64,000 bases of DNA from Dehalococcoidia bacterium. Lineage in GTDB: Bacteria; Chloroflexota; Dehalococcoidia; SpSt-223. This document shows, piece by piece, positions 1-15,400 of the stretch (positions are counted from its first letter, which is position 1; each line of letters begins with the position of its first letter). Location of the stretch: positions 565,414-629,413 of the forward strand of contig JAXLWW010000001.1 of NCBI GenBank assembly GCA_046328265.1, written 5' to 3'. The notes under the pieces are model-generated. The model ran no database searches, was not told where the DNA came from, and saw only the letters and a program-made list of their open reading frames with translations. Made by a program: the position numbers and the translations under genes.

Positions 1-2162
1 GCGCGCTGCAGATTGTCGTCGTCGCGGCACTGCTTCACGATATAGGCGTTCTCGCGCAACGCTCGATGGATAGCTCCGGCCCGACGACTGGGCATGCAGC
101 GCTCGCTGCTGCCTTTGTCGCCGAGCGTGCTCCCGCGCCATTTCGTGAAGCGTCATCGCTGATTCTCGCCCACCATCGGCCCGACGACCGGCTAAGCCGG
201 ATACTCGAGGCCGCCGATCGGATCGCTGCAGCCGGCCCGGACGACGAAGACGCCGGTCGGCCGATCCTGCAACGGCGGTCGGCGATCCCGGCTATTTCCC
301 ACGACCCAACAACGCCCGCGCGTACCACGTCGTTCTTCGAGGTCGGGTCGCTTCCCAGTTCGCTCGAAGCGAATGCCCCACGCACCAGCCCGATGGAGCG
401 CGACGAGGTGCGCCGCCGACTGATCAGCCTGGCCGAGATGATTGCTACCGAACATATCGCCGCCGCGAGCCCGGACTTCACCTGCTATGTCCGCGGTCTG
501 CTCGACCTGATCGATCGGGTCGCCTGCTTCGCTCCAGCGCCGTCGCGCGAACCAAGTAATGACATCTCGCTTGCCACGCACCTTCGCTTGACCGCCGCAC
601 TGGCAGCTTGCCTGCTTCGCGATGATACCGACGACGCGACGCTTGGAGCCCTTGTTGCCGAGGACGGCGGATCGCTCGACGCGCCTGTTGCCGTGCTCGT
701 TTCCGGAGTGCTGAAGCGACATCCCACGCGTCCGGATAGCACGCTCAGCCTTCCGATGCTCCAGGCTCGTGCCCTGCTAGACGGCGAATTGACGTCGGCG
801 GTCGAGGATTGGCTGCTGCGCTCGCTCGACCTTCCGCCGGTCTGTCGGATTGCTGGAAGCAGCGAGGGGTTCCTTCTGCTGGTTCCGTTGGCCGCTCAGG
901 ACCGACTGCCGTCGATCGCCCTCGATCTCGAGCGCCGGCTACTCGATGGTGGTGGGGAAACCGCTGCCCGGCTTGCCTGGGAGCCGATATCCGGCCGTGG
1001 TATCGCCAACCGTGCCGGAACGCTGGTCGCCAACCTGGCCAGACAGCGCTCGGCGCCGCGGCCGTTTGGTTCGACGTCGGCGGCGGATCTCAGTCGGTTG
1101 TTTGCCGCCCGCGACCCCGACGACGACGATCGAGCAGCCGAGTTGGGCCAACTCGCCGACCAACTTCGCCAGGCTAGTCATTTGCTGGTAGCGGACGTCG
1201 AGGAGCCACTCGGACCCGTGCGGATCGTCGAGCGACCGTTGGCGGCCTTCGGCCGATCGATCGTAGTGGTGGCTGGCGCCACGCCGCCTGACCTCCCAGC
1301 CGGGGCGCGACGGGCGCGTCTGGAACGCTTTGGTCAGAGTGGCCCACATGAGGCCAGTTGGCGTGCCTGGGCGCAACGTCAATCGGCTCCGGTTGCCCTC
1401 GTCAGTCGACCGCCTTTCTCCCCGGCCAACGACGACTCGTCTGGGCTCTTGGTGCTCGATCTCGATTCGTCGAGGGATCTCCTCGCCGAAGGCCTGGCCA
1501 ACGCGCCCTTGGCTCGGGTGATCGATCTCTTGGGATTGCTCCAGCATTTCCTGCGGACGGTTGCGCCGATAGCCGCAGCCGAGCAGTCGGGCGTTCCGGT
1601 TGCGCTCGTCGCGACGGGCGCCGACGACCTGACGGTGGCTGCGCCTCCAGAAGCGTTGCCAAGAATTGGTTTCGCGGTTGCCCAGAGTCTGGCGGCGATC
1701 ACCGGCGAGCATCCGGCGCTTCGCTTGAGCGCCGCGGTGGCCCCGATCGGTCGTCCGGCTCAGGCCATCGCCGCAGCGGAGTGGCTCCTGCGCCAGTCCG
1801 CCAAGCGATACCGGCGCGTATCTGGTCGAGAAAAGGACGCCATCGCCCTGTTTGGCGGTACGGTTGGTTGGGACGAGTTCCCGGCGGTCTGGGAGCGCTA
1901 CACTCGCCTCAACGATCTCATCGGCAAACGGCGAGTATCACCTCGGCTGCTCGCCATCCTTCAGGCCGTCGATCGTGGCGGCGTTTGGAGGGCGACCTAC
2001 GACCTTCGCCAAATGTCCCAAGGTGGACGATTGCCGGAGGCGGACGCCGCCACCTTTGCCGCGGAGTTGGCACGCCCTGACAGTGCGGCTCGCCTCGCAC
2101 TCGCCGCCCGTTGGGCGGAGACAGCAGTTCAATCGCGCAACGCGGAGGCACGCCATGAATGA
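1..2162 (+). CDS. cas10: Cas10/Csm1 large subunit of a type III CRISPR-Cas effector, 5'-partial (about 10-20 codons lost at the window edge). HD domain present; palm GGDD replaced by GADD; no CxxC zinc finger.
   Basis: The reading frame is open from position 3, upstream of the annotated ATG at 66. It translates ALQIVVVAALLHDIGVLAQRS, which matches the N-terminal HD motif of Csm1 (consensus ...YGALLHDIGK...), followed by a second His cluster (ILAHHRPDD). Palm-2 strand LLVLDLDSS (DxD) and ALVATGADDLTVAAPPE sit where Cas10 has the GGDD motif. Size is ~710 aa. Genes immediately downstream are csm2-csm5. Confidence 0.8.
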   Translation, partial: ALQIVVVAALLHDIGVLAQRSMDSSGPTTGHAALAAAFVAERAPAPFREASSLILAHHRPDDRLSRILEAADRIAAAGPDDEDAGRPILQRRSAIPAISHDPTTPARTTSFFEVGSLPSSLEANAPRTSPMERDEVRRRLISLAEMIATEHIAAASPDFTCYVRGLLDLIDRVACFAPAPSREPSNDISLATHLRLTAALAACLLRDDTDDATLGALVAEDGGSLDAPVAVLVSGVLKRHPTRPDSTLSLPMLQARALLDGELTSAVEDWLLRSLDLPPVCRIAGSSEGFLLLVPLAAQDRLPSIALDLERRLLDGGGETAARLAWEPISGRGIANRAGTLVANLARQRSAPRPFGSTSAADLSRLFAARDPDDDDRAAELGQLADQLRQASHLLVADVEEPLGPVRIVERPLAAFGRSIVVVAGATPPDLPAGARRARLERFGQSGPHEASWRAWAQRQSAPVALVSRPPFSPANDDSSGLLVLDLDSSRDLLAEGLANAPLARVIDLLGLLQHFLRTVAPIAAAEQSGVPVALVATGADDLTVAAPPEALPRIGFAVAQSLAAITGEHPALRLSAAVAPIGRPAQAIAAAEWLLRQSAKRYRRVSGREKDAIALFGGTVGWDEFPAVWERYTRLNDLIGKRRVSPRLLAILQAVDRGGVWRATYDLRQMSQGGRLPEADAATFAAELARPDSAARLALAARWAETAVQSRNAEARHE

Positions 2163-2655
2163 AGCCCCGGAGCGTCGCGGACCCCCGCGCCAGGGCAACG
2201 CACCCCGGCCAGGCGGGCCGCCACGCGGCGACCGCCGACCGCCAGAACCGTACCGCCCGATCGACCCGAAGGACTTACGAGCGATTGTGGTAGATGGCAA
2301 CGCTGCCGCGACCGTCCAGGAGGCGCAACGTCTGGCTCGGGTGCTGGCCGGCGAGCGGCTCGAAGCGCGCCACGCGACCAGTGGAGCGTTGCGGACGCTC
2401 TGGGGAACGTTGCGGGAAATGGCGATTGACTGGCCAGTCGCAGCGGGTGGCGGTCTGCCCTTGCTTAAGCCGAGGCTTGCCTACCTTGCTGGCCGGGCTG
2501 GCCCGGCAGGACGCGGGGTTGGCGACCTTCAGTCGGTGATCGCGCCGGCGATTGACCTGGTGGGCGATGACCGGGACCGTTTCGATCACCTCGTCGATTT
2601 TGTCGAGGCCGTGATGGCCTATTACTTTGCCGGGCCGCAGTTCGGCGGCCGCTAA
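2155..2655 (+). CDS. csm2: Cas11/Csm2-like small subunit. Start overlaps the cas10 stop (ATGAATGA).
   Basis: 166-aa ORF lying exactly between cas10 and csm3. About 40 aa of Pro/Arg/Gly-rich low complexity at the N-terminus, then ~125 aa of predicted helical sequence (DLRAIVVDGNAAATVQEAQRLARVL...FDHLVDFVEAVMAYYF). Position and size fit Cas11; sequence similarity alone is weak. Confidence 0.5.
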   Translation: MNEAPERRGPPRQGNAPRPGGPPRGDRRPPEPYRPIDPKDLRAIVVDGNAAATVQEAQRLARVLAGERLEARHATSGALRTLWGTLREMAIDWPVAAGGGLPLLKPRLAYLAGRAGPAGRGVGDLQSVIAPAIDLVGDDRDRFDHLVDFVEAVMAYYFAGPQFGGR

Positions 2656-2670
2656 CTGAGGAGGACCGAG

Positions 2671-3483
2671 ATGGCCGACGGAACGCCGACCACGCTCTTT
2701 GGACGCATCATCTGCCGCGCCGTCGTCGAGGTCGAAACCGGGCTGCACGTCGGTGCAAGCACCGCAAGTGGCGCCGTGACCGGGCTGGACTTCCCGGTGG
2801 TGCGCGACGCTTTGACCGGCCAGCCGTACTTGCCAGGGTCGTCGCTCCGCGGGAAGTTGCGCGCCGAAACGGAGCGACTACTCGGGCTTGCGCCAAATGC
2901 GTCGGGCCGTGGCGGCCCGCAGTTCTACGTTCCGCAGAACCAGGCTGACTACGATTCAAACCCGATCGGCCGGTTGTTCGGCGTGCCAGGTGCTCGTTCG
3001 TTTCGGGTGGATGCCGCGGCCCGGCTGGTTGTGCGCGACGCCTTCCTGACACCGGACAGCGCTGCCGCGCTCAAACGAGCACGCACCGACCTCCCCTATA
3101 CCGAGGTGAAGGCCGAAGCCGCGGTCGACCGGATCACCGCTGAAGCGTTGCCTCGCCACATCGAGCGTCTGCCGGCGGGAGCGCGTCTCGGTCCGCTCGA
3201 ACTGGTCTACAGCGTCTATACCGCCCAAGACCTCGCCGATTTCACCTGGGTCGCTCGCGGCCTGCAACTGGTCGAGGACGACTATCTCGGCGGGCATGGA
3301 TCGCGCGGCAGCGGGAAGGTGCGATTCCGCGATATCGAGGTGGTGGTCCGGTCGCGCGCTGCCTATCGTGGGGAGGAGGGCGGCGCATTTGACCCTCGGA
3401 GGTTCGACGATGTCGGCACGTTGATTGCTGGTCTCGACGAACTCACGGGAGCGATCCGGACGGCGCTGGCGCTGCCCGCGTGA
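2671..3483 (+). CDS. csm3: Csm3 (Cas7-family RAMP backbone subunit). The putative target-RNA cleavage Asp is retained.
   Basis: Strong SD (GAGGAGG) 7 nt upstream of the ATG. Hallmark motifs GLHVGAS, GLDFPVVRD (Asp-containing loop), YLPGSSLRGKLR (Cas7 G-rich segment) and the C-terminal glycine-rich loop GGHGSRGSGKV. Confidence 0.85.
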   Translation: MADGTPTTLFGRIICRAVVEVETGLHVGASTASGAVTGLDFPVVRDALTGQPYLPGSSLRGKLRAETERLLGLAPNASGRGGPQFYVPQNQADYDSNPIGRLFGVPGARSFRVDAAARLVVRDAFLTPDSAAALKRARTDLPYTEVKAEAAVDRITAEALPRHIERLPAGARLGPLELVYSVYTAQDLADFTWVARGLQLVEDDYLGGHGSRGSGKVRFRDIEVVVRSRAAYRGEEGGAFDPRRFDDVGTLIAGLDELTGAIRTALALPA

Positions 3484-4409
3484 ACCTGACGCTGCTTCGC
3501 CTTCAGCCGAGAGGGCCGTTCCATTTTGGGACCGACCACACCGGTGCGCCTGCGCCGGTGATCGGCTCGGATACCCTCTTTAGCGCGGTTTGTCTGGCCC
3601 TGCGCGACCTGTTTGGTCCGGTGCGGCTGACCAGCTTCGTTCGGGTGGTGCGCAGTGCCGCCGACCCGCCGTTGCGGCTCTCGAACGCGATGCCCTTTTC
3701 GGGGAACGTGCTCTTTCTGCCCGCACTTTCAGGGGATGGCTGGGTCTCGCAGTCGCTATTTGAGGCGCAGATCGCCGGCGAGCCGCTACCAGAAACGCGG
3801 CACTTGCAGGCCGGCTGGCTTCAGGCATGCGAAGCCGACGACCTGCCAGTGGAGCGAGTATGGACGGTCGATCGCCGGCGACGGGTGCGGCTCGGAGCAG
3901 GAACGCCGGAGCCGTTCGAGGACAGCGCTGTGCGCTTTGCCTCCGGCTGCGGACTGGCAGTGCTGGCGTTGATCGACGCTGAGTGGCGGGACGACGTGCT
4001 TGCGGCGATCCGCTCGCTTGGTGACAGCGGGATTGGCGGACGGCGTTCGACCGGCGCTGGACAGTTCGATCTGGCGGTCGAATCACTCGACCTCCGCGTG
4101 CCGGATGCGCCGACGGCCTACTGTACGCTGTCGTATTACCTACCATCCGCACGTGAGCTTGAGCAGGGTGTCCTGAACGAGCCGGCTCACTACCGGATCG
4201 ACGACCGGACCGGCTGGACGAGCGGGCCAGCCGGCAGCTTTCGACACCGTTCGGTTCGGATGATTACCGCTGGTAGTGTCGTCGCGCCGGTTGACTCCCG
4301 GCCGCCGGTTGGTCGGCTCGCCGACGTCACACCGACGGGCTTTCGTGATCACGAGGTACTTCGCGCCGGTTGGAGCTTCCCCATCGGCGTTCGGGGTGGC
4401 GCTGCATGA
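3480..4409 (+). CDS. csm4: Csm4 (Cas5-family RAMP). GTG start overlaps the csm3 TGA (GTGA).
   Basis: N-terminus LLRLQPRGPFHFG...GSDTLFSAVCLAL matches the Csm4 signature (hSDTLFSAL). Glycine-rich loop GDSGIGGRRSTGAGQF. 4-bp overlaps with both neighbours. Confidence 0.8.
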   Translation: MNLTLLRLQPRGPFHFGTDHTGAPAPVIGSDTLFSAVCLALRDLFGPVRLTSFVRVVRSAADPPLRLSNAMPFSGNVLFLPALSGDGWVSQSLFEAQIAGEPLPETRHLQAGWLQACEADDLPVERVWTVDRRRRVRLGAGTPEPFEDSAVRFASGCGLAVLALIDAEWRDDVLAAIRSLGDSGIGGRRSTGAGQFDLAVESLDLRVPDAPTAYCTLSYYLPSARELEQGVLNEPAHYRIDDRTGWTSGPAGSFRHRSVRMITAGSVVAPVDSRPPVGRLADVTPTGFRDHEVLRAGWSFPIGVRGGAA

Positions 4410-5923
4410 GCGATGTGGCCCGCAACTACCGGCTCGTCGTCGACGTTCTGTCGCCGCTGGCGATTGGCTCAGGTGATTTGCCGCTTCTTCCGGAGTACGA
4501 CTACCTCGCGGACGAGGGTGCGCTGCTGGTGTACACCGCGGCGGCTGCGCGTGGTGATGATGGGCGATTGTATGGACGGCCCGACCCGGCCTATCGGCTG
4601 CCGTTTGGCGGCGTCGAGACCCGGGTCCGCTCCGACCGGTGATCAAGGACGTTCTTGGCGCTCCCTACCTGCCGGGAGCGCCCTGAAGGTGCGCTGCATA
4701 CCGGCATCGCCTCGGCTCTTCTCGAACGTGAGCGCGCGGTCGGCCGTCCGCTCAAGAAGGACGATATTGCGCCATCGGCGCGGTTCGCTGCGCAGCCAGT
4801 CGAGCGTCGGCTGTTCGGTGCACAGCCGCGAGCGAGCGGGTTGCGCGCGTTGCGAGTGAGTGACGCGATTGCCACCGAGGGAACGCGCCTCGCGCTCGCC
4901 GCCGTCCGCACCTGTGGGGTCGACGAGGGGAAGCTGGCCGCGTTATCCGAGAGGTTGGCGATCGAGGTGATCGCGCCTGGTGGGCGACTGGTCGGGTCCC
5001 TGACGATCGACGGCTCGTTCCTCGAGCAGACCGGCACGCGTTTCGAGGGAACGCCCAATCGCGGCGAGATCGGCGAGACGATCGCGCTTGCTCGCGAAGA
5101 AGGCCGTCGCCGGGCGGCCGCCGAGCGCGCCTATTTTGCGAGCGCAGGCGCGTCGGCTCTGGTTGCGTTGTTCGATGGGCTGCTCGCGTTGATCGGTACG
5201 GCCGGTGAGAACACCATGCTGGTCCAACTGGGCTGGGGAGCCGGTTGGGATTCGAAGAGCTTTGGCCCGGCGTTGACGGCCAGCGGCGACTGGCCGGCGA
5301 TCCGCGAGGAGTTCTTCGGTGGGCGAGGACGGCGCCCGGACCGCGGACGCTCTGGCGAGCGGCCACGTCCCGGCGAACGACGCTCTGGCGGTGGACGCCG
5401 TCCATCTGGGTTTCCGTCGACGCGCAAACTGGCCGATCAGGCCGGAGGACCGGGCTTTCCGCTTGGCTGGGCGCTTGTCTCTCTTGTTCCCGTCGGTGAG
5501 GCACTTCCGCTCCAAGCAACGATGCCAGCCGCCTGGCAGGATGACGCGTTCTTGGTCCAGGAGCGGGGCGCCGGTGGCGCACCAAGTCGCGCTGTTGAAA
5601 GTGTCGCACCGGCGTCGCCTTTCGCCGCGCTTCAGGCGCTGCTTAGTCCGCAGGCCGCGCCTGAGGAGCAGGGCGAGTCCGCACCTCCTCCGCCGATCGC
5701 CCGAATCGCCGATCGGGCGCTGAAAGTGGGGACGATACTCGACGCCGAGGTGGTCACGATCGAGGCGGCCAGGATCTTGGTCGATGTCGGGCGGACCGAC
5801 CCAGCCGCCCTTGATGCGGCGACCATCGGTGGCGGCAACCTCGAGGTGCGCTACCAGGTCGGACAGCGCCTACGGGTGCGGGTCATTACGCCGCCACCCT
5901 TCTTCCGCATCCGGTTGAGCTAA
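4406..5923 (+). pseudogene. csm5: Csm5 (Cas7-family RAMP) with its reading frame broken inside the conserved G-rich motif. ATG overlaps the csm4 stop (ATGA).
   Basis: N-terminal ORF MSDVARNYRLVVDVLSPLAIGSG... (Csm5-type LSPLHIGSG) ends at TGA 4640-4642. The hallmark ...VIKDVLGAPYLPG / SALK / GALHTGIASALLE... is spread over three reading frames within 4636-4700. A 422-codon ORF then resumes (4655-5923) carrying Csm5 C-terminal features (RALRVSD, LVQLGWGAGWDSKSFG) and an RG-rich insert. Confidence 0.7.
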
Positions 5924-6127
5924 GACTCCCCGGAACGCCGATTCTTCGTTGCCGCCAGGTTGCCGCTGAACGGTCATGGCGCGGGGGAGGGTGACGCCCG
6001 GCCATGGGCTGGTTCGCCGTGCCAAACATGGAACGCTCTCCTCGCCGGAGAAGCAGCACGACTTTCGGGCACATCAGGTCAATGCGAGGAGAGGGCGGGC
6101 GCTCCGGCCCGGCACTGGAACGATCCT

Positions 6128-6919
6128 TCAGATGGCGGGGGAAGCCCCGCCGTCGAAGTTGATTGCCGTTCCGGTGAGATAGCCAGCGAGCGTCGAGACA
6201 AGGAAGGCGATCAGACTCGCGGCTTCGTCGGCATCTGGAATATACCCAGCGGGCACTTCCCGCGCTGCTCTCTCGGCATACGCGCGGTCGAGATCGAAAT
6301 CGGGGTACATCGCCTGTGTTATGCGGTCGATCTGAGCGCTGCGCACCGTGCCGATGCAAACGGTGTTGACGGTGATGCCCTCGCCTGCGACTTCCTTCGA
6401 GAAGGCTTTGGTAAAAGCGATACCGGCGGCGCGGCTGACCGAGGTGGGGAGCGAGCCTGGGCCAGGCGTCTTGCCGCTGATCGCTGTCAGATTGACGATC
6501 CGGCCCCACCTCGCCTCGCGCATGTCCGGCAGCACCCGCCGGCTGCACCGGATCGCCCCGAGCAGCTTGAGATTGAGATCTTCCTGCCAGGCCTCGTCGT
6601 CGACCGCATCGAAGCGACGCGCCGCGGCGGTGCCGGCATTGTTGACCAGAATGGCGACCGGACCGTGCCGCTCGCGGATGATGTCAAAGAGACGATCGAC
6701 CTGGGCCGGATCGCGGACGTCGGCTGGCACACCCAGGACGGGAACGCCGGTTTCTTCCTCGAGTGATCGGGCGGTGGCGGCGAGACGCTCGGCATTGCGG
6801 GCGCAGATCGCGACCGTGGCGCCTTCGAGCGCAAAACGACGAGCGGTGGCGCGACCGATGCCGGCGCTCCCACCGGTAATGACGGCGACCTTGCCGGCGA
6901 TGCCGAGATCGAGCGGCAT
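6128..6919 (-). CDS. Short-chain dehydrogenase/reductase (SDR) family oxidoreductase.
   Basis: TGGSAGIGRA Rossmann motif, NNAG motif, and a catalytic-region spacing typical of classical SDRs. 263 aa. Confidence 0.9.
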   Translation of the reverse strand: MPLDLGIAGKVAVITGGSAGIGRATARRFALEGATVAICARNAERLAATARSLEEETGVPVLGVPADVRDPAQVDRLFDIIRERHGPVAILVNNAGTAAARRFDAVDDEAWQEDLNLKLLGAIRCSRRVLPDMREARWGRIVNLTAISGKTPGPGSLPTSVSRAAGIAFTKAFSKEVAGEGITVNTVCIGTVRSAQIDRITQAMYPDFDLDRAYAERAAREVPAGYIPDADEAASLIAFLVSTLAGYLTGTAINFDGGASPAI

Positions 6920-6932
6920 GGCGAACTCCCAG

Positions 6933-7958
6933 TTAGCGAAGCAATGGGGCGCAGGTATCGATGAGCGCCTTGGTACGCTGAAAGCGGCCGGCGCCGGTGT
7001 AATCTCGGCCGGTTGGGATCAGGATCGGAATGTCGCAACTGTCCCAGTGACCGAGCAACTGTTCGCGGGCTTGCTCGGAATCTCCGGCAATTCCCATTTC
7101 GTCGAGGATCTCGTCGGTGACGGCGTGGGCAACGGCGTCCATGCTGCGCTGGTTGAAGAACGCGTCCTGAATGGCGTTCTTTTCCGCGGTCCAACCGTGG
7201 AAGTCGAGCAACGATCCATAGGACCGGGTGGCAAGATAGTTGCCCAAGCCCATCTTACAGTCGTATCGGGCCGACTCCACGTCGTCGGACACGACGGTGG
7301 TGATCCAACGCCCCATATCGAATGATGAGCGGTCGCGCCCGGCCTTCTTGAGCCCGATCGCCACGTTTGGCTCGATGAACCCTTCGATAAAGCGGCGGGT
7401 ATAGCACGGATGACCCGCCATCCCCTCACAGAGTTCGCCGGCCAGTTGGGCCATCAGCTTGTTGACCGCGGCAATGTAGATCGGGACGCGCTCGCGTGGC
7501 TGCCAGGGGTCGCCATATCGGATTTGCGAGATGTCGTAGTAGGTTCCTTTGTAGGCGAGCGGCTCACTCGATTTGTGCGCCCAGACGGCGCGCATGATCT
7601 CGATGACTTCGCGGAGTTGGGGCGCCGGCTTTTCAACCTGAATGCCGTACTGAAACAGGTTCTGGCGTTTGGTGCCGGTGGCCAACCCAAGGATCATCCG
7701 GCCATTGGAAAGCTCGTCGACATCTGCCGATGCTGAGGCGGTGACGATCGGGTTGCGGATGAAGGAACGACAAACCCCCGAACCAATCTTGACGGTCGAG
7801 GTGTTACAGGCGAGGGCTGCGAGTGCGACAAAGGTATCTTGACCCGGGTCGTCGCTGGTGAAGACCATCTCGAAGCCGGCGGCTTCGGCGTACTTGGCAA
7901 GCTCGATCTTGTCGCGAAGGCTATTGCCGACTACTGAGATACCGAGACGTCGCGCCAT
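6933..7958 (-). CDS. LLM-class (luciferase-like) flavin/F420-dependent oxidoreductase.
   Basis: 341 aa. TIM-barrel LLM signature pattern (ILGLATGT..., GDPWQPRERVPIYIAA). Confidence 0.8.
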   Translation of the reverse strand: MARRLGISVVGNSLRDKIELAKYAEAAGFEMVFTSDDPGQDTFVALAALACNTSTVKIGSGVCRSFIRNPIVTASASADVDELSNGRMILGLATGTKRQNLFQYGIQVEKPAPQLREVIEIMRAVWAHKSSEPLAYKGTYYDISQIRYGDPWQPRERVPIYIAAVNKLMAQLAGELCEGMAGHPCYTRRFIEGFIEPNVAIGLKKAGRDRSSFDMGRWITTVVSDDVESARYDCKMGLGNYLATRSYGSLLDFHGWTAEKNAIQDAFFNQRSMDAVAHAVTDEILDEMGIAGDSEQAREQLLGHWDSCDIPILIPTGRDYTGAGRFQRTKALIDTCAPLLR

Positions 7959-7961
7959 CCT

Positions 7962-8300
7962 CTAGTCACCGTCCTGGGGTTGCTCTTTCTGTCCGTTGGA
8001 GGCGCGGCGACGCGGGCGGGATCGCGATCGAGGTGGCGCTGCGGGCGAACTCTCGGGCGGCTCGGCAGGGTGCTCGGGCTCGGTCCAGACCCTCTCGGAA
8101 AGGCGCATCAGGAGTTCACCGTCCGGGGCAAGGCCGACGGTTTCGAGGATGCCGCGGTCGAGCAGCCAACCGATGGCGTTTTCGGCAGAAGAAACCCGAG
8201 GATCGTCGGCCCAACCGCGCCATTCGGTATCGCGCCATTCACGGCCGCTGTCGCGACCACCATCACGGCCGCCGAACCGTTGATTTCGGTAGAAGGTCAT
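7962..8300 (-). CDS. Hypothetical small protein with an RGG/RD-rich N-terminus. Possibly co-transcribed with the LLM gene (3-bp gap).
   Basis: ORF only. No recognisable domain. High-GC context makes spurious ORFs common. Confidence 0.3.
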   Translation of the reverse strand: MTFYRNQRFGGRDGGRDSGREWRDTEWRGWADDPRVSSAENAIGWLLDRGILETVGLAPDGELLMRLSERVWTEPEHPAEPPESSPAAPPRSRSRPRRRASNGQKEQPQDGD

Positions 8301-8382
8301 CGGCGCTAACGGTATCGTTTGATGAGCGAGAAATCAAGACGTCGGGGCGGTCGGCGAGCGGATCCGCTCTCGGCAGGCCGTC

Positions 8383-8412
8383 TTGACGCCGGATCGAGCA
8401 CATTCCTATACT
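8383..8412 (+). promoter_or_regulatory. Sigma-70-like promoter for the tRNA-Thr/tRNA-Tyr transcript (-35 TTGACG, 18-nt spacer, -10 TATACT).
   Basis: TTGACG at 8383-8388 and TATACT at 8407-8412, about 45 bp upstream of the tRNA-Thr 5' end. Confidence 0.4.
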
Positions 8413-8457
8413 TGAATGCCTCGTAGCACCGCAGTCGGCGTTGGGCCGGCAGTCTGG

Positions 8458-8529
8458 GCCGACGTAGCTCAATGGTAGAGCAGCGGTTTTGTAAACCGCC
8501 GGTTGCGGGTTCGAATCCCATCGTCGGCT
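8458..8529 (+). tRNA. tRNA-Thr (anticodon UGU).
   Basis: Cloverleaf: acceptor GCCGACG/CGTCGGC, D-arm GCTC-AATGGTA-GAGC, anticodon stem GCGGT/ACCGC with loop TTTGTAA (TGT), T-loop TTCGAAT, discriminator T. CCA not fully encoded. Confidence 0.9.
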
Positions 8530-8550: not shown

Positions 8551-8638
8551 GGTAGGGTGGCCGAGTGGTTAATGGCGTCGGTCTGTAAAACCGATGGGCG
8601 GAAGCTCTACACTGGTTCGAATCCAGTCCCTACCACCA
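8551..8638 (+). tRNA. tRNA-Tyr (anticodon GUA), type II with long variable arm and encoded CCA.
   Basis: Acceptor GGTAGGG/CCCTACC, anticodon loop CTGTAAA (GTA), long variable arm TGGGCGGAAGCTCTACAC, T-arm ACTGG-TTCGAAT-CCAGT, 3' ACCA. Confidence 0.9.
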
Positions 8639-9459: not shown

Positions 9460-9936
9460 GTGGTATACTTGCCTATGCCCTCGAAAGAAGCTGGTGAGCC
9501 GCTTGCGGTCAACCGGAAGGCGTTTCACGACTATTTCATCGACGAGACGTTCGAGGCAGGTCTGGCGCTGACCGGCACCGAGATCAAGTCCGTGCGTAAG
9601 GGGAATATCAACCTGCGCGAGGGCTATGTTCGGCCGGAAGGCGGCGAGATGTGGCTGCTCGGGGTGCATATCGCACCGTACGAGCAGGGGAACATTTACA
9701 ACCACGACCCGAGGCGACGGCGTAAGCTACTGCTCCACCGGCGCGAGATTGTCGAACTCTCGGCCAAGGTGAAGGAAAAAGGGCTGACGCTCGTGCCGCT
9801 GCGGGTCTACATCAAGAACGACGTGGCAAAGCTGGCATTTGGCCTGGCGCGCGGCAAGAAGCAGCACGACAAGCGCGATGCCATCGCCGAGCGCGATGCC
9901 AATCGTGAGATTGAACGGGCGCTCAAAGTCCACTGA
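9460..9936 (+). CDS. smpB: SsrA-binding protein SmpB. GTG start at 9460, alternative ATG at 9475.
   Basis: AVNRKAFHDYFIDETFEAGLALTGTEIKSVR and GYVRPEGGEMWLLGVHIAPY match the SmpB consensus. Followed directly by the tmRNA gene. Confidence 0.9.
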   Translation: MVYLPMPSKEAGEPLAVNRKAFHDYFIDETFEAGLALTGTEIKSVRKGNINLREGYVRPEGGEMWLLGVHIAPYEQGNIYNHDPRRRRKLLLHRREIVELSAKVKEKGLTLVPLRVYIKNDVAKLAFGLARGKKQHDKRDAIAERDANREIERALKVH

Positions 9937-9963: not shown

Positions 9964-10317
9964 GGGGACGCCAGGTTTCGACAGAGGGGGAAGTGACGCG
10001 ATTGCGAGCCGAGGAAGCCGATCCACTCGTAAACGATTCGGCGTGCCATAACTGGCAACACCAACTACGCTCTCGCCGCCTAAACAACGGTGACGTCTAC
10101 CCTCTCCTCATCCCGGCGGGCGGGGAGTGGGCGCCATGCAGCCGGGATGCTCGCCCGTTGACGTCGATAGGACGGGCGCTAAGACCCATCGGCTAGCCCG
10201 GAGGAACCCCGTCGGTGGGGGACCTTCAGGCGAAGCTCTAAATCGCCGACTACGCTCGTAGATATCGCGCAGTGATCTGCTCTGGACGGGGAGTTCGATT
10301 CTCCCCCGTCTCCACCA
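9964..10317 (+). ncRNA. ssrA: tmRNA (ssrA), 354 nt. Encoded tag ...NTNYALAA followed by TAA.
   Basis: 5' GGGGACGCCAGGTTTCGAC... and 3' ...GGACGGGGAGTTCGATTCTCCCCCGTCTCCACCA form a tRNA-Ala-like acceptor/T-arm with the G3:U wobble. Internal ORF ggc aac acc aac tac gct ctc gcc gcc taa at 10052-10081. Confidence 0.9.
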
Positions 10318-12505: not shown

Positions 12506-14558
12506 CTATGCTCGGGACGGCTCCTCTGCAGCATTTCTTCCGGCGTTGTAGCCCTGCGGGATGCACCGGCCCAGACCGTGCTGGGTCGTGCTGGCGGCGC
12601 ACTCGCCGGCAGCGTAGAGGCCGGGGATGATGGCGCCGCGAACGTCCTTCACCTGCATCTTCCCGTTGATCCAGATGCCACCAATGGTGTCGTGCAGCAT
12701 GATCGACGTCCAGGCGGCGTAGAACGGCGGTGCGTCAACCTTGTAAAGGGCTTGTTCTTCCCGAAGTCCTCATCCTCGCCCTTGTCAACCAAGGAATTCC
12801 AGCGCCGGAACGTCTCTTCGAGATTCGCCGGCGGCATGGGGATTTTGGACTTTGGCGATGTGCTGATCTTGGACGCCAGTTCGGCCAGCGTATTCGCGCT
12901 GAAGAAGTAGCCGTCCTCGGCGGTGTAGGGGGGCTTGATGTCCCATTTCTGACGCGTCACCGCCGCCGAGCGTCGAAGATGGCCCAGACACCGCCGGCAT
13001 CGTAGTCCGGCGCGGTCGAACCCTCGTTCATCATGACCGAGGCATCGGTCCAGCTATTCTTGTTGTACTTCTGCCTCATCCAGTCAATGCTGCAGTTCCG
13101 CCAATCCCACTGAACGAATTTTTCCGGCAGCGCTACGCGACCGGGCGGGTAGGCGGCTTCCGTTGGGTACCCGCCAGATTCCTCACGGTAGAAGCGCTTG
13201 CCAACCTGGTTGACGCAGATGACGTGTGGCCAGCCGGCAGAGCCAATATCGAGTCCGGACGATCGGGCAAAGGGGAAAACCGGCGACTTGGGGTCAACCT
13301 GATAGTACGGGTGCTGGGTGCCGATCACACTCCGCTTGCGCATCACAGCTTCAGTTTCATAGCTTGCAATGATGCCGGCAAATGCTTGGCCGCCAATTTC
13401 CGCGACGGCAATATGCCCCAAGCCGCTCTGACCGTTTTCGCCCGCGTATGGAGCGTTGGTCACTTGCAGCGCTTCAGGCCATCGCACATCCCAGATCTTG
13501 CGGAGTGTCTTGTTGCCCATCGGTCCGTTGGTGGCAATGATGACCGCCTTCTTGGCTTTGATGTTGACCGTGGGCTTGGTGGTATCGATGTTACCATCGG
13601 TGCGGAGGGGTTTCATGAGGGTGGTGCTGTTGGGGAGGGTGCGGGGAGAGTATTGCGCCCGAATGCCGATGACCGGTCCGGAGAGCGGCTGCTCCCGATA
13701 CAGTTGGTCGAACAAGTAGCTGAGAAGGAACTGGACACCCTTCTTCCGGGCGCTGTCCTCGAGCGGCCGAATAAGGCCGACACCGGTCTGGCCGGGCGGG
13801 TTCATGGCGCTTGCCTCGCCTTGCGCTTCGTGGACGGTTTGGGCCCGCCGGGAGGCAGAAACACCCGACTGACCATGGGCGCCGGAGAGGTCGGCGAATT
13901 TCACGCCGTTCGCCAGCAGGAAGTTGCGTACGGGGACCGCGGAGTCAGCAGCGACGCGGGACAACTCCCGGTCGTTAAATCGGTAGGTCCCTTTGCCTCC
14001 CTCGGTGACCGCAGACCAGTCCACCAGGTCCCGGAAGAGAATATCCGGCGAATCTGGACCGCCGAAGATGGTCTTGGTTCCTTCCTTCTGTTGGAGCGCA
14101 TCGTTGGCGCCAAGGGCGATGAACGACCCACTGGCCATCGCCCGTCCACCAACGTCGTAGTTCTGGTCCACCACGATAACTGATGCTCCGCTATCTCTGG
14201 CACTGATGGCAGCAGGCATTCCTGCGGCGCCGGACCCGATGATGACGACATCGGCTTCATAGTCCCAGGTGGTGGGATTCGCCGAACGTGCGACTGCGAC
14301 GGCGGTGCTGCCGCTCACCGCAACCGGGGTGGGCGGTGCGCTGGTTGCGACAGGAATCGCTTGTTGCGCGTCACTGGTGCAGGCTGCCAGCAGCGGGGCG
14401 CTAACCGAGACCCCCGCAACAGCCATCCCCGTGCGCTTTACAAACTCACGTCTTGTTACGCCACTGGGTGTCCCATTATCGTTGTTTTTTTTGTACCCAT
14501 GATGGCTATCTCCCGAAGAGAATTCAGACTGCTGTATACTAATCCTGAAGCGTGACAT
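12506..14558 (-). pseudogene. FAD-dependent oxidoreductase (KstD/fumarate-reductase flavoprotein-like) with a Tat signal and lipobox. The reading frame is broken twice near the 3' end.
   Basis: Start MSRFRIS...TRREFVKRTGMAVAGVSVSAPLLAAC (twin-arginine signal plus LAAC lipobox). FAD dinucleotide fold VVIIGSGAAGMPAAISA. The C-terminal homology continues in two other frames: ...WAIFDARRR* then TRQKWDIKPPYTAEDGYFFSANTLAELA...FGKNKP, then LYKVDAPPFYAAW...HDTIGGIWINGKMQV...IPGLYAAGECA. The second shift looks like a 1-nt indel in a C-run; the first lies in a CGG-repeat region. Confidence 0.7.
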
Positions 14559-14642
14559 TGTCAATCCTCTGTCAAAAAAAGAGTTCAGGGTCAGTGGGAT
14601 GAACTGATGCGGTGGGCGTGAATTGGGTGTAATCCCGGTGTC

Positions 14643-15400
14643 ATGCCACCGTTGCCGAACCTGAGTGGGTTGTCGCGAAGCGAGTTGGAAGCCCTGGTCG
14701 TGTCGTTGTACGCCGAGCAGTTCGAGGCGTGGGCGCCGGCCTTGGAAGGTCGCCTCAAGAGGGGCGGTCCACCAGCCAGCCTGCCCAACGCCAAGCCGCA
14801 GTCTCCGCCCGATCGGCCACCGAAGGCCCGTAAGCCGCGACCCCAACCGAGGTCGTCGTTCATGCCTTGGACACCTGTCCGGACTGCGGCGTCCACGTGC
14901 TCGGTGGCTGGGTCCAGCGGCGACGCGAAGTCATCGACCTGCCACCGCCCACCATTCGGGTCATCGAGCATCAGTTCGTCGCCCGAACCTTTCCGCTCTG
15001 TCGCAAACGGGTGACGCCGCCGGCGAGCGGGTTGGACGGCCTGCGGGTTGGCAGGCAGCGGTAGAGTTCCCCTCGGGTGAACTTCTTGGCGACCCTTCGC
15101 GAGGTGGGCCGGCGACCGGTCAAGACGGTGCAATGGCTGGTCCGGACGCGCTCCGGGCCTGCAGGTGAGCCTCGGGGCGATGGTGGCCACGCGGACCCAG
15201 CCGTAGCAAGCACGAACAATGCTGCCGAACGCAGCCCGCGTCACCTCGCCGTCAGTCGGAAGAACAGCGGGGGTACACGCTCGCTGGTGGGTAACGACAC
15301 CACGATGGCGCTGGCGACGCTCTTGGGCGCTTGCTGTCTGCGTCGGCTGGTCCCGCTCAGCCAAGTGCTTGGCGTTCTCGTTTCCCCGAAGCGCTGAATC
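14643..15400 (+). mobile_element. Decayed IS66-family transposase (TnpC) remnant: N-terminal coiled-coil, zinc-finger segment and C-terminal TNNAAER region in different frames, central DDE region missing.
   Basis: Frame a: LSRSELEALVVSLYAEQFEAW...KARKPRPQ. Frame b: CPDCGVHVLGGWVQRRREVIDLPPPTIRVIEHQFVARTFPLC (IS66 CPxCG...RVIEH...C motif). Frame c: TNNAAERSPRHLAVSRKN...LLGACCL (IS66 C-terminal TNNAAERALRP.AIGRKNWLF...TCKLNG motif, degraded). Confidence 0.7.

Follow-up and report, generated by a model that had tools for sequence, protein, structure and literature searches.

The csm5 gene in the stretch of DNA analysed here (64,000 nucleotides, hereafter the window) is deposited with a broken reading frame, and this break most likely stems from an error in sequencing or assembly, because an almost identical intact copy of the gene is present in another dataset. 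The lesions are thus probably technical, residing in the consensus of this metagenome-assembled genome (MAG) of a Dehalococcoidia bacterium, probably a long-read one as the 662-kb contig (662,382 bp) suggests, and the organism most likely carries an intact csm5 of 506 codons. The deposited frame and the landmarks around its break are as follows:

4406..5923, + strand: csm5 as deposited; with three bases restored it yields a type III-A Csm5 of 506 aa (TIGR01899, PF03787, intact allele, solved-structure matches)
4406..4642, + strand: N-terminal ORF, ATG at 4406 and 78 codons, ended by TGA at 4640-4642; "hypothetical protein" at NCBI (P0009, MFN8532466.1, U0556_02845)
4620..4622, + strand: contraction site 1, CCC in the window against CCCC in the intact allele, in the context GAGACCCCGGGT
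4655..5923, + strand: downstream ORF, TTG start, 422 aa; labelled Csm5 at NCBI (MFN8532467.1)
4657..4682, + strand: small hairpin, rich in GC, whose 9-bp stem (GGCGCTCCC / GGGAGCGCC) is perfectly paired
4663..4700, + strand: N-terminal RAMP motif PYLPGSALKGALHT, legible only over three frames
4674..4676, + strand: contraction site 2, GGG in the window against GGGG in the intact allele (CTGCCGGGGAGC), inside the LPG-SALK motif
4686..4687, + strand: contraction site 3, AA in the window against AAA in the intact allele (CCTGAAAGGTGC), beyond which the original frame is back

The ATG at 4406 overlaps the stop codon of csm4, and the N-terminal and downstream ORFs share one common frame. Between them the RAMP motif is scattered, with PGPLRPVIKDVLGAPYLPG read in the 4408 frame, SALK in the 4407 frame and GALHTGIASALLER in the original one. 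An earlier note on this DNA had described the stop at TGA 4640-4642, the motif readable across three frames and the resumption of a 422-codon ORF, all of which are confirmed; its placing of the frame hops in short runs of G, A and C is borne out by the C, G and A run contractions seen against the intact allele. The interval which it gave for the shifts (4636-4700) holds for sites 2 and 3, the first shift (4620-4622) lying upstream of the TGA and just outside that range. All three lesions are single-base contractions of same-base runs and together span 66 bp; the chance of three indels falling within 67 bp is P = 1.6e-4 over 8.5 kb and 5.7e-3 if they are confined to csm5. In the case of a consensus error, the deposited csm5 would undercall three short runs by one base each within these 66 bp (C4>C3, G4>G3, A3>A2), which is why the frame would pass through all three phases and expose the TGA. 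Such undercalls would probably stem from a stretch of poor consensus where coverage was low or came from mixed strains, the assembly then being a hybrid or long-read one.

Some local sequence symmetry is found around the sites. The contraction at site 1 gives rise to a GACCCGGGTC palindrome that is perfect, and the 9-bp hairpin is flanked by the other two sites: its right arm begins at site 2, and site 3 lies 4 nt past that arm. A template-switch "correction" of a quasi-palindrome, as one real event, is nevertheless unsupported, since the folding energies of the broken and intact forms are -27.3 and -27.4 kcal/mol, respectively, with unremarkable z-scores.

The Logan assembly of SRR26348421 (L001) matches window positions 1-8502 with 99.86% identity, the alignment containing nine substitutions and three indels. 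All three indels sit in csm5, each of them a base absent from the window (CCCC>CCC, GGGG>GGG and AAA>AA), and L001 carries a single intact csm5 of 506 codons (P0010). It had been proposed that two extra bases would restore an ORF of 505 codons; in fact three bases are absent and the intact gene is one codon longer. Seven of the nine substitutions are synonymous, the two replacements (M/V and L/M) are conservative, and there is no substitution within ~800 bp on either side of the break. The difference between the two alleles is concentrated further downstream:

5522..5713, + strand: cluster of six substitutions (two conservative replacements, four synonymous) that separates two natural csm5 haplotypes (L006 versus L001)

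The window alleles in this cluster are common to WBZR01050139.1 (L006), which is 99.9% identical to the window and begins at window position 5008, short of the break, while the other set is found on L001. Because of this difference in haplotype, L001 is not strictly the same strain as the window; both haplotypes conserve the protein. Exact look-ups of the Csm3 and Csm4 proteins returned L001 alone, hence one independent assembly spans the break. The exact-protein look-up revealed no other indexed assembly encoding the truncated products of 78 and 422 aa, and a 36-mer taken from between the shift sites had no exact match in the genome or metagenome contig collections. A comparison with orthologous loci, which the earlier note had recommended, showed that the orthologues, like the L001 allele, are single intact csm5 ORFs.

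Csm5 is the terminal Cas7-like RAMP subunit of type III-A Cas10-Csm effector complexes, and the intact csm5 encodes a predicted subunit of this kind. The product of the repaired gene scores 59.6 bits with TIGR01899 (E 3.5e-16; curated cutoff 38.3) and 41.8 with the RAMPs family PF03787 (cutoff 22.1). In addition, csm5 is the last gene of a cas10-csm2-csm3-csm4-csm5 operon, the position expected of it, and the original assignment of the gene is thereby upheld. The upstream part of the operon is free of lesions:

1..4409, + strand: upstream operon part, intact by profile matches; two differences from L001, both synonymous
start 18 nt ahead of the window, end 2162, + strand: cas10, intact
2155-2655, + strand: csm2, intact (PF03750)
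2671-3483, + strand: csm3, intact (TIGR02582, 194 bits)
3480-4409, + strand: csm4, intact (TIGR01903, 164 bits)

The best solved-structure matches of the csm5 product are all Csm5 chains (COG1332 / TIGR01899; 6MUR_F, 6IQW_F, 6IFK_H, 6XN3_J and 7UZZ_E), with which it shares the HMM score, the last place in the operon, the PGSxxKG block and the glycine-rich loop. The restored protein also fits six to seven homologues in length (501-520 aa) and sequence, with 45-60% identity across the break, and in the alignment the homologues read ...PGPxRPV... across site 1. The intact allele and all homologues aligned share both RAMP hallmarks, P-G-S-x-x-K-G-A and G-W-G-x-G-W, without variation. It is the former, with the invariant columns P91, G92, S93, K96, G97 and A98, that is split over three frames in the deposited window. 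The break had been assigned to the Cas7 G-rich hallmark; the broken block is instead the N-terminal RAMP motif, and the true G-rich hallmark, as the glycine-rich loop of RAMP proteins is defined in PMC3150331, is undamaged:

5231..5248, + strand: glycine-rich loop GWGAGW, intact; invariant G278, W279, G280, G282 and W283

Two further anomalies had been reported in the neighbourhood, and these differ in nature:

12509..14560, - strand: FAD_binding_2 oxidoreductase with a Tat-type signal, broken twice (Pfam, L002, orthologues)
14834..15397, + strand: IS66 transposase remnant with a large internal deletion, retaining the zf-IS66 domain and, of the DDE domain, no more than the final ~35 residues

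The FAD oxidoreductase gene is indeed frame-broken. At its 3' break the window has AAA (12745-12747) where a contig of the same strain (L002), otherwise 100% identical over 1,958 bp, has AAAA, so the signature of csm5 is repeated in a second gene. The other (5') break consists of two extra nucleotides at 12971-12972 relative to the orthologues and lies outside any same-base run; a search for a same-strain comparator at this break yielded none, the orthologues (P0012 and P0141) being only 84% identical at the nucleotide level. Meanwhile, the IS66 remnant, which gave no hit in a motif text search and was located by Pfam, is not frameshifted, contrary to what had been supposed. It is a real remnant with an internal deletion, and its structure is identical in the independent contig L013 (0 indels). 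Remodelling of the region, as had been suspected, is evident from this shared remnant and from the position of cas6, which lies ~17 kb from the csm operon on the other strand, whereas csm5, cas6 and the FAD gene are adjacent in relatives at 84% identity. Since the 2-nt insertion in the FAD gene adjoins a genuine IS66 remnant in a rearranged locus, real lesions do occur near csm5.

Further frame breaks were sought by Pfam scans of selected ORFs, because a GC content of 64% made gene maps based on GC3 or codon usage too noisy. Some two dozen further ORFs of the window gave full-length matches in a single frame, which agrees with the earlier statement that the housekeeping genes are intact, although its count of roughly 50 exceeds the two dozen or so that were checked. 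Another ~11 kb of sequence, set against independent assemblies, is without any indel, and among the sequence compared breaks are located in csm5 and the FAD oxidoreductase gene only.

That a sequencing error was possible had already been allowed for, and the clustered run contractions and the intact L001 allele fit this well. Indels against near-identical assemblies are, in four cases out of four, one-base contractions of 3-4-base runs (C4>C3, G4>G3, A3>A2 and A4>A3), and no signs of decay are seen in the csm5 operon, where cas10, csm2, csm3 and csm4 carry no lesions. The residual error characteristic of nanopore metagenome genomes is the run-length indel, which leads to apparent frameshifts and to truncation of ORFs (PMC9600527). 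The indels found here share with such errors the single-base miscounts, the apparent frameshifts and the split or truncated ORFs; they differ in that the runs are short (true length 3-4) and the lesions are clustered in two accessory genes instead of being scattered, the platform of the MAG being itself a probable assignment. In KatS3mg060 (L003), another MAG with a very long contig, the csm5 orthologue likewise has indel breaks.

Several observations sit less comfortably with a consensus error. Random errors should strike housekeeping genes too, yet the ~11 kb of other sequence is free of indels and about two dozen ORFs are intact; low or mixed coverage of a local kind could account for breaks being seen in csm5 and the FAD gene alone. 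Runs of 3-4 bases are short for typical run-length errors, the second break of the FAD gene is a 2-nt insertion that does not fall in a same-base run, and L001 represents a haplotype different from that of the window.

The same observations might be taken to indicate a genuine, very recent and strain-specific knockout of csm5, produced by one clustered mutational event such as an error-prone repair patch with -1 slips in short runs. The lesions are, after all, present in the deposited sequence, the breaks are restricted to dispensable genes with ~11 kb of other compared sequence devoid of indels, the neighbourhood is truly remodelled (the shared IS66 remnant, cas6 apart from the csm operon, the 2-nt insertion in the FAD gene), and the csm5 haplotype of the window differs from the intact one. 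However, three independent -1 events in 66 bp are very improbable (P ~6e-3 even within the gene), hence a single multi-lesion event would be needed, and such an event would have left no substitution over ~800 bp on either side and no lesion in the rest of the operon. Moreover, the broken allele is found in no other assembly, and a second gene shows the same type of contraction relative to a contig with 100% identity elsewhere. A knockout therefore seems unlikely, though it deserves to be kept in mind. If true, the strain would produce one fragment of 78 aa and, at best, another of 422 aa that is without the PGSxxKG motif, leaving the Cas10-Csm complex without a functional Csm5 cap; a natural csm5-null strain beside an intact haplotype would be of modest interest.

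Gradual pseudogenisation, that is, long-term decay of a dispensable type III system, is a highly improbable account of the break. Real decay of dispensable genes had been favoured previously; in its favour are two to three disrupted accessory genes within 15 kb among intact housekeeping genes, the lack of any CRISPR array in the 64-kb window and the Cas10 palm motif, which reads GADD and not GGDD. With genuine frameshift pseudogenes of degenerating CRISPR-Cas loci csm5 does share the premature stop, the split ORF and its place as an accessory gene near a mobile-element remnant. Nevertheless, its lesions are all run contractions within 66 bp and are not spread over the gene, scattered secondary lesions and an excess of replacements are missing, the upstream genes are lesion-free, and the sole assembly spanning the site (L001) has an intact allele at 99.86% identity. 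With seven of the nine substitutions synonymous and the protein conserved in both haplotypes, signs of relaxed selection are not observed either. The pattern in csm5 would appear to fit an error of the local consensus or, at the most, a single event of very recent date, and does not seem to fit gradual decay.

Programmed recoding, with a full-length product made by ribosomal frameshifting, transcriptional slippage or TGA read-through, would profit from the three shifts totalling -3 and from the flanking ORFs sharing one frame, but is scarcely credible. Three separate -1 shifts within 66 nt would be required. Site 1 lacks the canonical X XXY YYZ form of a slippery sequence, sites 2 and 3 have no more than 2-3 identical bases, and runs of that length do not suffice for slippage during transcription. 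The orthologues, like the near-identical allele, are all plain single ORFs, and the neighbouring genes use TGA as an ordinary stop (e.g. csm4 at 4407-4409).

With a consensus error as the preferred explanation, the main value of the csm5 case is one of caution. In the public record the gene appears as two entries, a "hypothetical protein" of 78 aa and a "Csm5" of 422 aa, from which readers could wrongly infer a defective or decaying type III system. As the comparison points to a whole gene in nature, the break should not be used for biological inference before the reads have been checked.

A more useful by-product is the unusual architecture of the protein itself. Solved Csm5 proteins are mostly of 340-403 aa (one chain has 559 aa), against 506 aa here; the protein also differs in having an Arg/Gly-rich insertion, a linker of ~90 aa predicted to be disordered and a C-terminal S1-like OB fold:

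5318..5410, + strand: Arg/Gly-rich low-complexity insertion within the Csm5 core, a variable region among homologues
5711..5920, + strand: C-terminal S1-like OB-fold domain (AF2, Foldseek, phmmer), with a Pro/Ala-rich, predicted disordered linker between it and the core

The tail is modelled by AF2 as five strands with pLDDT 86-91. S1 domains (bS1, Tex, exosome, PNPase and RNase E) dominate its top 50 Foldseek matches in the PDB (E ~1e-3), and in phmmer it matches P0135, which has seven S1 repeats, with an E value of 2.6e-8. The Pfam S1 profile (PF00575) remains below the gathering threshold, at 14.0 bits versus 22 (E 0.068), and a second member of the clade scores 13.4 bits; the five-stranded OB barrel, the structural neighbours and the sequence link together mark the tail as S1-like. 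Csm5 proteins of ~500 aa with such a tail form about half a dozen 50%-identity clusters, whose named source genomes belong to Chloroflexota.

In Staphylococcus, Csm5 recruits the housekeeping nucleases PNPase and RNase R, which aids the work at the crRNA 3' end or on target RNA. It may tentatively be suggested that a small Csm5 clade acquired an S1-like RNA-binding domain of its own on a long flexible tether, together with the Arg/Gly-rich insertion, and that direct capture of the crRNA 3' end, or of target RNA, could be a function of the tail. This reading of the clade stands whether the frame break of csm5 is real or not. Literature searches for an S1 or OB domain on Csm5 returned only Makarova et al. 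2011 (PMC3150331), who describe an S1-domain fusion in a variant type III system with Csx10 / all1473. In both cases a component of a type III effector module carries a fused S1/OB-fold domain for RNA binding; the published case concerns a III-B variant, with no mention of Csm5 as the partner in the fusion, whereas here the S1-like tail is borne by a III-A-type Csm5. The S1-tailed Csm5 may represent a type III-A effector variant that is new, and is worth separate study. The Cas10 associated with it keeps the HD motif, while its cyclase (palm) motif is degenerate, with GADD instead of GGDD in the window and TTDG in a relative.

The gene csm5, the fifth of a cas10-csm2-csm3-csm4-csm5 operon, is interrupted in the deposited sequence. 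The reading frame opened by the ATG at 4406 ends after 78 codons at a TGA (4640-4642); PGPLRPVIKDVLGAPYLPG is then found in frame from 4408, SALK in frame from 4407 and GALHTG... in the original frame, which the N-terminal ORF shares with a downstream ORF. These frame readings show that the earlier note was correct in describing a motif split over three frames before a 422-codon ORF resumes. The NCBI products of the two halves, MFN8532466.1 (78 aa) and MFN8532467.1 (422 aa), originate from a 662,382 bp contig of a Dehalococcoidia bacterium MAG. The block affected, taken earlier for the G-rich hallmark, is the conserved N-terminal RAMP motif, and the glycine-rich loop itself is unbroken. The features concerned are as follows.

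Ending at 2162: cas10 (111-2291 on L001, a contig of the Logan assemblies; 3040-5760 on L003, contig BPIC01000002.1 of KatS3mg060)
4406-5923, + strand: csm5
4620-4622: contraction site 1, CCCC in L001 to CCC in the window
4655-5923, + strand: downstream csm5 ORF, 422 aa, TTG start
4657-4682: GC-rich hairpin with a perfect 9-bp stem (GGCGCTCCC / GGGAGCGCC), adjoining contraction sites 2 and 3
4674-4676: contraction site 2, GGGG to GGG
4686-4687: contraction site 3, AAA to AA
5231-5248, + strand: glycine-rich loop GWGAGW of Csm5

An intact Csm5 of 506 aa (P0010), which falls in the same 90%-identity protein cluster as the csm5 product(s) of the window, is encoded on L001, an 8.6-kb contig of SRR26348421. 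Alignment of L001 with positions 1-8502 revealed 99.86% identity, nine substitutions and only three indels, all of them bases absent from the window and each located in a short same-base run. When the three bases are put back, a single csm5 ORF results, and the break region reads GGVETPGPLRPVIKDVLGAPYLPGSALKGALHTG and aligns without gaps to six homologues (501-520 aa, 45-60% identity). The correction needed thus amounts to three bases and 506 codons, where two bases and 505 codons had been anticipated earlier. The restored product scores 59.6 bits against TIGR01899 (Csm5; cutoff 38.3) and also matches the RAMP superfamily in Pfam, and Csm3 and Csm4 score far over their NCBIfam cutoffs. Six of the substitutions lie within 192 bp (5522-5713; four synonymous, two conservative) and represent two natural csm5 haplotypes, with the window alleles common to a third, independent contig (WBZR01050139.1, L006) and the other set found on L001; both haplotypes are real, and the protein is conserved in both.

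Two further genes had been reported as frame-broken, and they lie downstream among the following features.

8458-8529 and 8551-8635: two tRNA genes, in the interval from the csm operon to the FAD gene
9460-9936 and 9964-10317: smpB, then tmRNA, in the same interval
12509-14560, - strand: FAD_binding_2 oxidoreductase with a Tat signal and two frame breaks
14834-15397: IS66 transposase remnant, retaining the zf-IS66 domain and, of the DDE domain, just the final ~35 residues
22672-23610, - strand: cas6

The oxidoreductase, annotated at NCBI as a 453-aa fragment, is broken twice. One break results from AAA at 12745-12747, where a same-strain contig (L002; 100% identity over 1,958 bp apart from this base) has AAAA; the 5' break is a 2-nt insertion (12971-12972) when compared with four orthologues that are 84% identical. 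The IS66 remnant, on the other hand, recurs unchanged in an independent Logan contig (L013). It therefore represents a genuine relic of an internal deletion, and no frameshift is involved.

Sequencing error, which the earlier note had allowed for, is likely to account for the csm5 break as an artefact of the consensus; the deposited sequence does contain the break, but the cell probably does not. Each of the four indels that separate the window from near-identical assemblies shortens a 3-4-base run by one base, and the AAAA to AAA change in the FAD gene carries the same signature. For three random indels to lie within 67 bp of one another, P = 1.6e-4 over 8.5 kb, or 5.7e-3 if all are confined to csm5. 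The operon is free of decay from cas10 to csm4, and the 78-aa and 422-aa products are encoded by no other indexed assembly. The residual errors typical of nanopore-derived metagenome genomes are miscounted run lengths, which give rise to apparent frameshifts and truncated ORFs (PMC9600527), and the 662-kb contig suggests long reads, a platform we infer. In KatS3mg060, a further Dehalococcoidia MAG with a very long contig, the csm5 orthologue (L003 8001-9540, 65% identity) is likewise broken by indels, with one shift near a G5 run at ~8975 and a surplus of two bases near 9500, just ahead of the stop; this was also counted towards a technical cause.

A genuine, very recent knockout by a single event seems rather unlikely. 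Counting against a technical cause are the haplotype of L001, which is not strictly the same strain, the position of the 12971-12972 insertion outside any same-base run, the lack of indels in ~11 kb of other sequence compared with independent assemblies, and about two dozen other ORFs that are unbroken in a single frame; any errors must therefore be local rather than general. Programmed recoding and gradual decay have a negligible probability, and the decay of a dispensable csm5 favoured by the earlier note is disfavoured by cas10 to csm4, which differ from L001 by two changes only, both synonymous, as well as by the clustering of the lesions and the synonymous nature of seven of the nine substitutions (the others being M/V and L/M). 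As a biological finding, the break is ordinary. The contraction at site 1 produces a perfect 10-nt palindrome (GACCCGGGTC). A test for a template-switch origin at a quasi-palindrome gave no support, since the broken and intact alleles do not differ in folding energy.

More worth following are the rearranged locus and the C-terminal part of Csm5. All members of this clade comprise ~500 aa (501-520), versus 340-403 aa for most solved Csm5 chains, and the additional length is made up of the following regions in the window.

5318-5410, + strand: Arg/Gly-rich insertion
From ~5500, + strand: Pro/Ala-rich linker of low predicted confidence
5711-5920, + strand: conserved C-terminal tail of ~70 aa

The tail is predicted by AF2 to form a five-stranded barrel (pLDDT 86-91), and its top 50 Foldseek PDB hits are mostly S1 domains (E ~1e-3), including those of ribosomal protein bS1, Tex, exosome subunits, PNPase and RNase E. 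A phmmer search of 1.84 billion representatives returned no more than about six close relatives; its other hits were multi-S1 proteins, among them P0135 with seven S1 repeats (E 2.6e-8); the Pfam S1 match was sub-threshold (E 0.068). The C terminus of Csm5 in this clade is thus predicted to be a conserved S1-like OB-fold domain, tethered by the linker. In Staphylococcus epidermidis, PNPase and RNase R are recruited and stimulated by Csm5 for crRNA maturation (PMC9762709); speculatively, a built-in S1 module could allow Csm5 to make direct contact with target RNA or with the 3' end of the crRNA. Our literature search for Csm5 with an S1 domain or OB fold yielded no Csm5 report, only S1 fusions from a different type III variant (PMC3150331).

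In relatives at 84% identity (L015, L016), one strand carries the csm5 end, cas6 and the FAD gene side by side; a CarboxypepD_reg gene, a 211-aa ORF and tmRNA come next after the FAD gene. In the window, cas6 and the FAD gene are ~8 kb apart, the IS66 remnant marking the start of this gap, and the cas10-csm5 block (1-5923) is found on the other side of tmRNA and smpB, oriented opposite to cas6 and the FAD gene. By its gene order, the locus is therefore genuinely rearranged. The earlier suggestion of a non-functional or remodelled type III complex thus stands in part as to remodelling, while loss of function is not demonstrated. L001 ends within the first of the two tRNA genes. No CRISPR array was found within the 64-kb window and no CARF or Csm6 gene among the ORFs scanned. 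Cas10 has kept its HD motif (AALLHDIGV), and its palm/cyclase motif reads GADD in the window and TTDG in the KatS3mg060 orthologue, a hint that this clade may do without cyclic-oligoadenylate signalling.
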